Assembly: GCA_964449155.1 (NCBI GenBank)
Contig: CAYVBP010000002.1
Span: forward strand, 334-64,333
Reading direction: 5' to 3'
DNA length: 64,000 nt
Source: an uncultured Rhodospirillaceae bacterium
GTDB taxonomy: Bacteria > Pseudomonadota > Alphaproteobacteria > UBA9219
A program made the position numbers. This document shows, one piece after another, positions 60,001 through 64,000 of the stretch (within the stretch, counting starts at the first letter, position 1; every line of letters begins with the position of its first letter).

Positions 60001-63000
60001 TTTGTGCCTTTGCTTGGCGCACTGCTGATCTCAAGCGTGCCGTTGTGGTCTACCTCTACGATCTTTCTGGCTATGGGAAGACCAAATCCCATACCAGAAG
60101 CTTTGCGCGTTGCATAAAGGCGAAGACAATCCTTCCGATCCTCCTCGTTCATGCCGCATCCGGTGTCCTGAACCGTAATCGTAACATGGCGGCGAGGTTT
60201 TGAAACCGCGCCTATCGTCACACGCCGTGGCTCTTGGGTTTCAGAGCAAGCTTCAACGGCGTTCGTCAGAATATTGAGCAAGGCTTGGATAATCCGGCTT
60301 CTATACATTTGCGATGCAAGTGCAGGATCAACCTGCGTTTCGATAATCTCGACGCCGAGCTTTCGCGTTTCATCCATACCACGCACAAGATCGACTGCGT
60401 CGCGGATGACCGTTGAAACAGGTTCCGCCTTCATTTTGCCAGAACCTTCACTTGTCAGATCACGAAGATTCTCAAGAATGTCGTTCAACAAATGAATGCG
60501 TTTTTGTGCGCGGGCTATATGTTCCCCAATATGGGCGGCATCAGCCTTGCCGCATTCCCGTTGAAGATTGAGCATGCCCGCATCGAGGGGTGAGATAATT
60601 TTAATCAGCTCGTGATAAATCTCGCGCACAAAATGCGCGTGCATCTTGTTGGCTGTTCTAATCGCCGCCTTACGCGTGACTGTTCCATGCTTCTGCTCAA
60701 CATCGTCAAGCAGCGCCTTGATCTCGTCTCCGTTTGTTTTGTGATGCAACGATGTCTGCTTGTTGCCGTTCCGGCGCTGGATTGTCCGTCGCGCCGCGTC
60801 GCGAACGTAGGCATTGTCGTCTTGGACAAGAGCTGATGCGATGGTCGCAAAAAGCTCGTGATTGAGACGAAGCAAGCATTCGGCAACAGCTTTGCGAACC
60901 TCCCATTTTCTATGAACCGCAAGGCCGCGCAGACGCTCAGCTAAACGATCGATATCCTCATGTGACAGGACGCCGCATTCCAAGCGTTCGCCGAGCTCAT
61001 GCAGGGAATCGCGTATACGCTGCCAATTCTCTGCACCGAGTTCCTGAAAAAGCTTTTCCGGCGTCTTGTTTTTCATCCGAAGAACTCAATGTCCATAACG
61101 TTTCATGCGCTCGCGGAAGGCATCGGCCCCGCCTTCCAAAAGGTATTCGATTTTGTCTTTGACGGCATCCACGTTGCCGCTGTTCCCCAGTTTTGCTTGT
61201 TGGCCATCGGAAGATAGCACAAACACGCGCTCGGCGTCTCCCAGAACAGGAATATTTGGATTGTGCGTCACGAAAATCAGCTGACGGCTTCCCTTGGCCT
61301 CGCGGACGCTGCGCACGACGGTATCGTACACAAAGGCGTTGTCGAGATTGTCTTCAGGCTGATCGATCAAAAGCGGCCTCGCATCTTGAAGCAGCAAAAT
61401 CGGCAAAATAACCGTACACCGCTGTCCTGTAGAAAGCTGAGCCGAGTTTTTGTATTCGGCCCCGTCCTTGAGTTCAATGCGCGGCAGATCGTCAATTTCC
61501 ATGGTTTCGAGTTTGGCGATGTTGTCGGCGTGCTGCTGGATGTGGGAAATAATTTTCTGTGCTTGGTCTTTGCCTGTTTCAGCCTGCCTTTCCAAAGCGT
61601 CAACATCCCCTGTGCGCACGAAACGCGCGAGATCGCCAGGACAGACCGAAGTGACAATGCGCGGGATGATGGTGTTGTATCGGACGCCGGATCCCTTCAG
61701 CATATCGCGCAACTCGGCCTCGTAAAGGGACTTGTCCTCCGCTTGTGTCACGGAAACGCGGATGGTCGGTGAGAGTTTGGTTGATAGATCGGCAGCTACG
61801 GTGCGCCGCGCTTCATAGCGTTTATCCCGTAAATCGGAAAGACGACACGAAAAGTCGGATATGTCTTGAGCGAGATTTTTGCGCGTTTCAAGACGTTGTA
61901 TCCGTTCCTTTTCTTGCGCGAGAAGTTCATTCTGGCGGCGTTGAAGTCCCTGCCGCTCTCTGACTTGGGCGCTTTGTTGTTGTACGCGGGCTGCAAGGTC
62001 GCGATAAGCCTGATCCTGCAGCGCGTGCGCTTGCGCAAGCCGCTGAGCTATTTCTAAAAGCGCGTTATCTGTTTTTTGGCTTAAAGCCAAGGCTTGACGT
62101 TCCAACGCCTCAAAAGCCTGGAGAAAAGCGTTAATTTCCTTCTGAATTTCCGACAAGAAGGCTCCGTTCTCGCCACGAAGCATAGACTCATCGATCACGT
62201 TATGGCACTTGCCGACGACATGTTGTTTCCATTGGCCTGCCTGGACTTCAACATTTTTGACCACATCGCGGAGGGTCTGAATAGACGCTCCTTCACGCGA
62301 TCTTAAACTTTTTGCTTTTTCGGCAAGAGCAAGCGCGTCAGCTTCTGGGCTTCCGCTTGGCTTTGATTCCTCCAATTTCAGATTGATGCCTTCAAGCTCA
62401 GCAACAGCGTGTTCGCATTCGCGCAAAGCATTTTCGTTCCGCTCGTTTTCATCAATTTTTTGACACAAGGCATGCTTGGTGCGTTCGATTTCTTCTTGGG
62501 TCTGACGAATCTCAGTTTCCGCAAAGCGATCGATCAGCTGCAGCTGAAAACGAGCGTTCCTTGCGATTTCTTCGATCTTGTTCTGGCCGTATATATCGGC
62601 CTTGAAAAGGCGGCTACGATTCAGAGACGCTGCCTGCGGCTCACCCCTGGCATTGAACAATGCGGCTGCTTCGCCGATAGAACGCTCGATGCGGTAAGGA
62701 ACGCCACCTTGCGTTTCGATATCGAGAACGACTTTGCCTGAACGTAGATTTTCATCAACGACTTCCTTGTTCGCCTTGCTTCGCTCCTGCGGATCGTCCG
62801 AACTCAAAAGAAAACGAATAAACTCCAGAACGGTTGTTTTTCCCGTTCCGCGCCCGCCGATAATACAATTTAACCCGTCTTCAAAATCAAGGCGCAGACC
62901 ATCAAGAAAGCCGCCAGTGACGGAAAGAGCAAGAATGCGATGGTGCGATGTAGATGACGGTTCTTCTTCAATATCTTCCTCAATCGCGACGGCACTGGTT

Positions 63001-64000
63001 CCTTGGATCATGATTTTCCACGCCTTTCTTTCCTTGTTTGCAGCAGGGTTCCTCAACCGGAAGCTGCGTAAGCTTATTGTATGAAGGCGAACAAATCAAG
63101 AACATGCGATGTTGTGCATAGTGACGGTTAATAACTGAAACATAAGGCTCCTTCCTTTCTCCTTCCTTTGGGCTTCCCTCGGGCAGCAACTGCACCCTCC
63201 AGATTTCCTTCTCTGAAATTCTCCAATCTCCGGACACGTTTTGAACGAACCGGAGGGATGGAGAATGACCATTCAGCATTTTGGACAAGAGCAGCTTGCG
63301 CAGCGCTGGGGGATTTCGACCAGCACGCTAGAGCGGTGGCGTTGGTCTGGCGAAGGGCCACGTTTTTTGAAGTTGGGCGGAAGGGTCGTGTATCGCCTTG
63401 AAGATATCGAGGCTTTCGAGGCCGAAAAGCTCCGCAACAGCACTTCAGGTGCTGCACCGCAAATGATGCCGGACTTCCGGCAGGAACGCGCCGTGCCTCA
63501 ACCAGCACCCCAACAATCCCCGCAAGTCACCAGCAGAAGGAGAGCGTCATGAACATCCCGAACAGGATCACGATAAATCAGTTGCGCGACATGCCGCCTG
63601 GGAAGATCGCGACGTTTTCGGTCGAGGAAATGGCTCTTCTGCTGGAAGACCTGAACGGCGCGAAGGCTCATCTGGCAGCCATCGAAAACAAGCTGCGTAG
63701 CGGGCTCGATCTCAAATACGGGCAAAAGTCCTCGGAGCTTCGCAGGGCCAGCGGCAAGGACACGGGCACGGTGCGCGTTACGGACGGGAGGTTCGTCGTC
63801 GTGATGGATTTGCCCAAGCGCGTTAAATGGGATCGCACAAAACTCGCGGGCGCTATCCGAACCATCGTCGAGCAATGGCGCGAGGATCCAGAGCAATATG
63901 TGACGACCGAATACAAGGTTTCGGAAACAGCCTACGGCGCTTGGCCCGAGGCGATCCGAAAACTGTTCGAGCCCGCCCGCACCGTCGAGCACGGCAAGCC

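Follow-up and report, generated by a model that had tools for sequence, protein, structure and literature searches.

The described proteins closest in sequence to the ATPase considered here are TrlF (NF045780), Spaf_1101, and Ppl, which are 820–1035 aa in length, carry an N-terminal PHP phosphoesterase domain of ~245–265 aa, and stand alone, with no kinase or regulator. They share with this ATPase a GGRGTGK(T/S) motif, an IDQPEDNLD motif, and a coiled-coil insert. While a bona fide TrlF is ~890 aa, the present ATPase is without the N-terminal ~266 profile positions, which are the PHP region, and it is the first gene of a three-gene operon, followed by a histidine kinase and a response regulator. 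Nothing relevant on the TrlF ATPase was found in the literature. The operon, hereafter the trio, lies in a 64,000 nt stretch of DNA (hereafter the window) from contig CAYVBP010000002.1 of an uncultured Rhodospirillaceae bacterium. The trio is an apparently undescribed, widespread two-component system with a putative accessory ATPase sensor. With a probability of about 0.5, it is a sensory switch of mobile elements, here of a prophage, in which ATPase, kinase, and regulator govern an early promoter.

Rad50/SbcC, RecN, JetC, and LmuB have the same fold, an ABC (ATP-binding cassette) head split by an antiparallel coiled coil. Compared with these, the arm of the trio ATPase is much shorter and has neither zinc hook nor hinge, and its partner is a histidine kinase rather than Mre11/SbcD, kleisin/KITE, JetD, or LmuA. 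In the BceAB-BceRS modules, an ABC machine does the sensing for a kinase that has no sensory domain of its own. The logic of the trio would be the same, from an ABC-type ATPase input through a sensor-less kinase to an OmpR-family regulator. However, the Bce modules use a membrane transporter and an intramembrane kinase and deal with antibiotic flux, whereas the trio consists of soluble proteins with an SMC-like ATPase, and homology is confined to the generic ABC, kinase, and receiver domains. Detocs is made up of a TPR kinase, a receiver-only buffer protein, and a receiver-effector enzyme, while the trio has one receiver protein, a DNA-binding output, and no effector gene. The OmpR/PhoB family has the same architecture of a receiver plus a winged helix, and the direct repeats of 11 bp period described below are as in pho boxes, although the winged helix of the trio is too divergent for Pfam Trans_reg_C. 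A two-component module also forms part of the Ambrosia defence system (AbrB/AbrC), together with methylase and HNH effector genes (bioRxiv 10.1101/2025.09.30.679545). Here too the kinase is soluble and the regulator combines a receiver with a winged helix, and the pair is proposed to turn on neighbouring genes when the cell is infected, but no SMC-like ATPase is present.

The operon is arranged as follows, with coordinates given for the window and ATPase residue numbers for the 641 aa version of the protein.

59165–63056, minus strand: operon of ATPase, kinase, and regulator, tightly packed and translationally coupled
61086–63011, minus strand: SMC/Rad50-fold ABC ATPase, 641 aa, likely ATG at 63011
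59958–61076, minus strand: cytoplasmic histidine kinase, 372 aa, start 9 nt after the ATPase stop
59165–59956, minus strand: response regulator, 263 aa, GTG at 59956, GGAGG ribosome-binding site

The mechanically called ATPase open reading frame (ORF; 61086–63056, minus strand) is 656 aa from a TTG at 63056, but the ATG at 63011 is probably the start because it matches the N-termini of the homologues. An initial annotation of this DNA had placed the ATPase first in a three-gene operon with a 9 nt gap before the kinase, and both features were seen here. It had also reported that the kinase and regulator genes overlap. This holds if the TTG at 60034 is used, as in the mechanical regulator ORF, where the overlap is 77 nt, and is lost with the GTG at 59956, which follows a GGAGG, lies 1 nt past the kinase stop, and is the more likely start on sequence grounds. 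In ~100 homologous loci, the gene junctions are mostly between −11 and +13 nt, often with overlaps of −4 or −1. A simple consensus scan for sigma-70 promoters and terminators gave no convincing signal inside the operon.

The order of the three genes is conserved. Among 104 loci in which 2.4 kb or more of sequence follows a full-length ATPase homologue, the kinase is the next gene in 102 (~98%), and a receiver protein follows the kinase in 100, with two more recognised by eye. The two exceptions to the order are a decayed locus and a PHP-fused distant relative. More than 8 phyla keep this order, and over 97 loci the three proteins co-vary in pairwise identity (r = 0.90–0.94; 0.94 for ATPase and kinase, 0.90 for ATPase and receiver). 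When IMG/VR was scanned for the kinase instead, 17 loci came up, every one of them on a contig that the ATPase search had already found. The three genes are one co-inherited operon, and the co-conservation in other genomes on which the initial annotation had made its reading depend is therefore present.

Over 400 ATPase homologues of ~640 aa were found by a word-indexed search, and an exhaustive phmmer search of 1.84 billion representatives gave 1,044 clusters (50% identity) at E ≤ 1e-30, PHP-fused relatives included. At least 570 relatives were found in a scan of one genome per species, the best 80 of which come from Alphaproteobacteria, Myxococcota, Magnetococcales, Planctomycetota, Verrucomicrobiota, Acidobacteriota, Gemmatimonadota, and Anaerolineales (Chloroflexota). 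There are ~40 full-length copies on IMG/VR viral contigs, and in PLSDB plasmids only TrlF-type proteins. Some genomes have multiple copies, with four in Myxococcales nzgw250 and two in Planctomycetes syqfu. Cultured carriers are Aquamicrobium aerolatum DSM 21857 (locus L017), Anatilimnocola sp. NA78, and Planctomycetes bacterium syqfu. As a named system the trio is absent from Pfam, NCBIfam, PADLOC, PHROGs, and Rfam, and no description of it was found in a literature search that did not reach the 2020 ABC-ATPase classification, which bears out the earlier view that no described system has this composition. A survey of BREX (PMC12839542) mentions OLD-ABC and Schlafen-kinase modules, but not the trio.

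The ATPase has a Walker A motif GGRGTGKTT (52–60), a Q-loop at Q143, LSTGQR (526–531), a Walker B motif LLIDQPED (547–554), and an H-loop FVTHN (580–584), and these head motifs are invariant or nearly so across the family. In the AlphaFold2 model, built with 60 homologues (predicted local distance difference test, pLDDT, 84; predicted TM-score, pTM, 0.72), the head is formed of residues 25–152 and 507–641, with a small helical domain at 428–503. An antiparallel coiled-coil arm of two long helices (153–269 and 283–413; ~115–130 residues per strand) is joined by a short loop, the apex having a nearly invariant G-x-N at residues 280–282. No CxxC zinc hook and no globular hinge are present in the coil, be it in the sequence, the family alignment, or the model, and the protein has no nuclease domain. 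The top Foldseek matches in PDB are JetC (E 6e-12), SMC (2e-11), and Rad50 (3e-11), followed by MukB, condensin/cohesin heads, RecF, and RecN, while a PDB sequence search gave generic ABC C-terminal matches only. By its predicted structure, the protein is an SMC/Rad50-fold ABC ATPase with a head split by an antiparallel coiled coil; motifs, AlphaFold2, and Foldseek thus agree with its first description as such.

In Pfam the ATPase matches SMC_N, AAA_23, AAA_15, and AAA_21, and no PHP domain is found. The top NCBIfam match is the TrlF family NF045780 (E 1e-93; 315.5 bits against a cut-off of 350), over profile positions 267–944 only, followed by the Spaf_1101 family and then anti-phage Ppl (NF042955; E 5e-36; 124 bits against a cut-off of 1000). 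By these profiles, the ATPase is a PHP-less sister of the TrlF/Ppl PHP-ATPases. The recN model TIGR00634 scores 30.6 bits against a cut-off of 407.85, with the N-terminal part only, and the Rad50 model scores 23.4 bits against a cut-off of 847. Partial matches in PADLOC are to Ppl (1.9e-22), mad3, AriA, and LmuB, those to LmuB being confined to residues 40–131 or at E 1e-7. By their defining features, the ATPase is outside the Rad50/SbcC, RecN, SMC/JetC, LmuB, TrlF, and Ppl families.

Walker B (residues 550–554, nt ~61350–61364, minus strand) reads D-Q-P-E-D, as in 124 of 126 trio ATPases, a count biased by the presence of this motif in the locus search pattern. There is therefore a Gln at the position of the canonical catalytic Glu, as there is in the PHP-fused relatives. 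Engineered E-to-Q mutants of SMC and ABC proteins bind ATP but hydrolyse it poorly.

The kinase has a HATPase_c domain (Pfam E 4.7e-23), an H-box with His155 (YHE), an N-box (N268/N272), a G1 box (D304-G306-G308), and a G2 box (G330-G332). H155, N268, N272, D304, G306, G330, and G332 are invariant in 21 diverse kinases and all are at least 95% conserved in 103. No transmembrane or hydrophobic segment is present, and no sensor domain other than an N-terminal HEAT-like region (approximately residues 40–100), to which belongs a conserved signature of ~60 residues, KWEVRKAVA...DxNxxVRxAAxR. The kinase had been described as soluble with HEAT repeats as its sensor; the first part stands, while the match to Pfam HEAT_2 is weak (E 1.4e-4, below the gathering cut-off). 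No PADLOC model matches the kinase, the presence of Detocs in PADLOC 2.0.0 being unchecked. By its motifs, the kinase is catalytically complete but without a conventional sensor.

In the regulator, the receiver residues D12, D55, and K125 are invariant in 101 sequences, and all 101 match Pfam Response_reg. The only C-terminal Pfam matches are to winged-helix families, Trans_reg_C being matched by 1/101, and none of the 101 has an enzymatic or other effector domain. The C-terminal domain (residues 173–260) is predicted by AlphaFold2 with pLDDT 85–91, from a shallow alignment (9 proteins from the word-indexed search) with which the receiver half is poorly predicted. Its top Foldseek matches are the DNA-bound OmpR-family regulators CosR, PmrA, and KdpE. 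What had been an unrecognised output domain is thus, in the model, a divergent OmpR-like winged helix, and its function is therefore likely to be DNA binding and not enzymatic. The receiver has an insertion between beta-3 and alpha-3, and a second regulator clade, from Planctomycetota and others, has an extra HTH_11/DeoR-type winged helix.

The trio of the window diverges, across a 253 bp control region, from the early operon of a prophage. The features of this region and of the start of the early operon are given here.

63064–63072, plus strand: CTGCGTAAG box, counterpart of TTCTGCGTAAA of related prophages, preceding the repeat array
63148–63180, plus strand: direct repeats CTCCTTCCTTT, CTCCTTCCTTT, GGGCTTCCCTC in exact 11 bp register (period 11 z ~5; other periods z < 1.6)
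63218–63266, plus strand: predicted stem-loop pairing the Shine-Dalgarno sequence and AUG of HTH_17 (−24.3 kcal/mol, z −4.5)
63265–63552, plus strand: HTH_17 (excisionase/AlpA-like) gene, first of the divergent prophage early operon (Pfam HTH_17; ATG 63265)
63549–64000, plus strand: start of a phrog_2480 homologue, cut by the window end and running beyond 64000
63498–63992, minus strand: 164 aa ORF without family match, antisense to the phrog_2480 homologue, probably not a gene

A divergent HTH/excisionase-like gene and a phage-like ORF had been noted beside the operon; the former is confirmed by the HTH_17 match, while the latter is the probably spurious ORF at 63498–63992. Prophage contexts were read from pre-annotated loci, as greedy ORF calls pick the wrong strand in GC-rich loci. 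The same locus is present on contig JAQVBU010000026.1 (L007) of the metagenome-assembled genome Alphaproteobacteria bacterium STD2_72, which reaches 9.6 kb past the window end. There the divergent operon encodes, in order, HTH_17 (excisionase/regulator phrog_66), phrog_2480, a Sak4-like AAA_24 protein, phrog_2300, DUF6511, a Cas4-like exonuclease, a Dda-like helicase, a Toprim primase/polymerase, a RuvC-like resolvase, and DUF6362. A second contig of STD2_72, JAQVBU010000020.1 (L177), carries a 97% identical copy with the same early-operon layout. The ATPase copies of L007 and L177 are 100% and 97% identical, and both contigs break inside the kinase gene, which suggests that two related prophages or strain variants collapsed the assembly. 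Beyond the regulator side of the trio are a rhodanese gene and then host genes including thrS; the trio is therefore the outermost module of the prophage, with its edge within 58911–59165.

In L001, L003, L159, and L178, an integrase or serine recombinase (with DUF2924) is followed by the trio, HTH_17, and the same replication module. In L156 the integrase or recombinase and the trio are followed by a sigma-like gene and Prim-Pol, and in L157 and L158 a sigma-54 activator follows the trio. The trio is upstream of and co-directional with the early operon in most loci. Since this is also the case in L178, a relative with 76% identity, the trio has been inverted in the lineage of the window. Of 53 loci with good flanks, 30 carry phage or integrase markers when a limited seed set is used. 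The neighbours of the remaining 20 loci, mostly from Planctomycetota, Verrucomicrobiota, and Acidobacteriota, are heterogeneous (CBASS, restriction-modification/methylases, helicases, IS). No Peptidase_S24 or XRE-type repressor is called within 7–10 kb in six annotated prophage loci, and the annotated contexts contain no metallophosphoesterase (Mre11/SbcD), kleisin/KITE, or JetA/B/D partner gene. The initial annotation had asked about a zinc hook and a nuclease partner, and both are absent from the sequence, the model, and the neighbouring genes.

The cargo between the integrase and the trio in related prophages (L003 2389–5674, L001 1–4170, L156 1–3183) includes CBASS-like E1/E2/JAB with a patatin, an N6 methylase with a ResIII helicase, and an MmeI-type enzyme. 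In 14 loci, mainly Magnetococcales prophages (e.g. L036 8743–9807, minus strand; L029 1099–2199), the gene directly upstream of the trio encodes a WYL-WCX regulator, and in these the gene after the response regulator encodes a Cro/C1-HTH protein fused to sigma region 4. Extra DNA is found between the regulator gene and the repeat array or HTH_17 in L087 (3622–4149, a GNAT acetyltransferase), L011, L092, L093, and L117, and this junction appears to be an insertion hotspot.

The repeat array of the window is 85–117 nt upstream of the HTH_17 start codon. In alphaproteobacterial prophages, the ~140 bp before HTH_17 opens with TTCTGCGTAAA, followed by 4–6 direct repeats in exact 11 bp register; overall, the number of repeats per array is 3–6. 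The core of the repeat is locus-specific, being ATCCATCA, ATCCGCC, ATCCCCCG, ACCCGTC, or CTTCCTT, and the motif is in register only before HTH_17. Periodicity with z ≥ 4 was found in 24 of 96 regions downstream of the regulator, at 11 bp in 20 and at 10 bp in 3. Among the controls it was found in 3/93 upstream and 2/102 coding regions, none of them at 10–11 bp. Where DNA has been inserted, or the trio inverted, the array stays beside HTH_17. In L087 and L178, which have regulators similar to that of the window, the sequences are CCTTCC-rich and less regular. Short 11 bp arrays (3 × TGACGGA; TCCCGGACTTC) follow the regulator gene where a sigma-54 activator is next. The array at 63148–63180 is a candidate binding site of the response regulator. 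The repeat class tracks the putative recognition helix of the regulator, while two repeat classes share one and the same HTH_17 helix, RWRISPRTLE (kinship uncorrected), which is suggestive of a repeat core that follows the regulator rather than HTH_17. That the array is an att site or a set of replication iterons was rejected, because the repeats are inside the element at the first early gene and have an 11 bp unit.

A conserved TCCGACACACCNCCGCCGATG box is common to those Acidobacteriota, Myxococcota, and Gemmatimonadota loci that share a regulator recognition-helix signature. A box TCCG(A/C)CACACC-N-CCGCCGAT(G/C) is present 20–90 bp past the regulator stop in L022, L042, L046, L048, L049, L066, L069, L156, and L157. 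This CCGCCGAT box, seen in Acidobacteriota, Myxococcota, Gemmatimonadota, and metagenomic loci and often after a GGAAAC...GTTTCC inverted repeat or 3 × TGACGGA, could be a promoter or operator of some type.

Downstream of the array is a −10-like A/T hexamer, which the array does not overlap, with no recognisable −35; indeed, the sigma-70 consensus scan found no recognisable promoter in the control region before HTH_17. The leader of HTH_17 folds into a hairpin in all 14 loci that were folded singly (the window, L001, L003, L011, L012, L015, L018, L019, L031, L087, L090, L091, L092, and L117), with differing sequences, at −14 to −27.5 kcal/mol and z −2 to −6. In this hairpin a pyrimidine-rich upstream arm is base-paired with the Shine-Dalgarno sequence and in many cases also with the AUG, and translation of the first early gene could be locked in this way. 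No consensus structure emerged from RNAalifold when the HTH_17 leaders were aligned with MAFFT, the arms shifting between loci, and there is no Rfam match in 58800–64000.

As a switch, the trio would have the ATPase as its input, responding to a DNA-related cue such as ends, damage, or foreign or replicating DNA. We infer a cue of this kind because the fold is shared with Rad50, RecN, LmuB, and JetC. ATP-dependent engagement of the heads would be passed to the kinase through its HEAT-like domain, and the kinase would phosphorylate D55 of the regulator. The phosphorylated regulator would then oligomerise head-to-tail on the 11 bp repeats, in the manner of PhoB/OmpR types, and switch on the early operon, with its excisionase-like regulator and its replication and recombination genes. 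The outcome would be control of induction, excision, or the choice between lysis and lysogeny. Activation is the most likely sign of this control because the array abuts the place of the missing −35. Two to four copies of the trio in one genome would be expected of element-specific switches.

Several points weigh against this interpretation. The sensed signal is deduced from the kinship of the fold, and we infer activation rather than repression from geometry and from the absence of a recognisable sigma-70 promoter. The Gln in Walker B suggests that the ATPase cycle may be unusual. The correspondence between repeat core and regulator is without phylogenetic correction, and regular arrays are rarer in Planctomycetota, Verrucomicrobiota, and Acidobacteriota, where the gene neighbourhood resembles a defence island or cargo region. 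Binding to direct repeats in helical phase is also known from excisionase-type HTH proteins, P2 Cox and lambda Xis among them, and HTH_17 could therefore itself be the binder of the array. Isolated phages in INPHARED gave partial C-terminal matches only, none with the trio.

A more specific form of the switch is possible but rather doubtful. Here the SMC/Rad50-like ATPase, perhaps a natural 'EQ-type' slow-hydrolysis clamp, would read a state of the DNA (breaks, ends, or invading or replicating DNA, for instance) in a prophage or integrative element and, through the HEAT kinase and the regulator on element-specific repeats, fire the early/excision operon as a RecA/LexA-independent induction switch, with regulator-repeat pairs acting as immunity specificities so that related elements could coexist in one cell.

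Somewhat less likely again is a role in defence, in which the SMC-like ATPase would detect invading DNA or a phage protein and the kinase and regulator would turn on a nearby toxic or protective response, or abortive prophage genes. Such a role would suit an ATPase that is akin to anti-phage Ppl and TrlF and has a fold resembling JetC of Wadjet. It would also suit the location of the trio in the integrase-proximal cargo region, beside CBASS in L003 and restriction-modification in L001 and L156, as well as the SMODS/HORMA/SAVED, methylase, and ResIII helicase genes that adjoin it in other phyla and the WYL-WCX regulators of 14 loci. Detocs is one precedent for a two-component module within a defence system. 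Another is Ambrosia (bioRxiv 10.1101/2025.09.30.679545). However, self-contained defence is made less likely by the finding that 0/101 regulators carry an effector domain. Indeed, the initial suggestion of a self-contained defence or repair system is unsupported, as no nuclease or other effector is found in the trio at ~100 loci, and the PHP domain of Ppl and TrlF is the exact part that is missing. The kinase has no PADLOC model, there are up to four copies per genome, and the phased repeats are at a prophage early promoter. Furthermore, what follows the regulator gene is in most cases no toxin but one of the element's own regulators (HTH_17, sigma-like, or sigma-54 activator). Both the switch and the defence models are compatible with a mixed interpretation, in which superinfection or damage is sensed by the prophage and answered by induction.

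The same wiring with the opposite sign, in which the (phosphorylated) regulator would be a repressor on the array that silences the early operon and ATPase and kinase would keep it active until its phosphorylation is removed by a signal, is an unlikely route to maintenance of lysogeny, though one with some points in its favour. The divergence of trio and early operon over 253 bp is classical repressor geometry, no other repressor-like gene is called nearby in the six annotated loci, and the repeats are element-specific, like immunity operators. Against this, in most loci the trio precedes the early operon and is read in the same direction, the position of the array upstream of the −10-like hexamer, without overlap, is that of PhoB-type activation, and the predicted Shine-Dalgarno hairpin would already block the first gene translationally.

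That the ATPase is an ordinary RecN/SbcC repair protein beside an unrelated two-component pair is highly improbable, in spite of weak partial matches to recN, Rad50, and recF models and the annotation of some homologues as 'DNA repair ATPase RecN' or 'SbcCD ATPase subunit', since canonical RecN/SbcC is refuted by recN and Rad50 scores far below the cut-offs and by a kinase and regulator that, in whatever phylum, adjoin the ATPase in ~98% of loci and have diverged together with it, to which are added the lack of an SbcD/Mre11 partner and zinc hook and the prophage location.

On the host side of the prophage edge, the window contains the following features.

50531–51706, plus strand: IS4/IS5-type transposase (DDE_Tnp_1), directly upstream of tRNA-Thr
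51797–51871, plus strand: tRNA-Thr(GGT), preceded by the insertion sequence (IS), with thrS following on the opposite strand

An IS and a tRNA had been reported a few kb from the operon. Both are real, but they are 7.3–8.6 kb away with thrS between, and a tRNA-associated island was rejected because thrS and other host genes separate the tRNA and IS from the trio. The transposase is preceded by trpB/trpA-like genes. At 55679–58374 (plus strand), a host cluster encodes two MinD/ParA-like ATPases that carry 4Fe-4S cysteine motifs and have small NifX/NifB-like proteins as flanking gene products, and a secreted rhodanese follows at 58446–58910, all as read from the translations only.

If the proposed wiring is true, the trio would represent a new class of two-component input, in which a soluble SMC-like DNA-binding ATPase replaces the ligand-binding sensor domain, and temperate phages and integrative elements would have in it a new type of genetic switch. 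The comparison also ties the Ppl/TrlF PHP-ATPases to a derivative in signalling that has a phosphorelay in place of the nuclease domain, a link that could help to explain what the Ppl-type ATPases sense.

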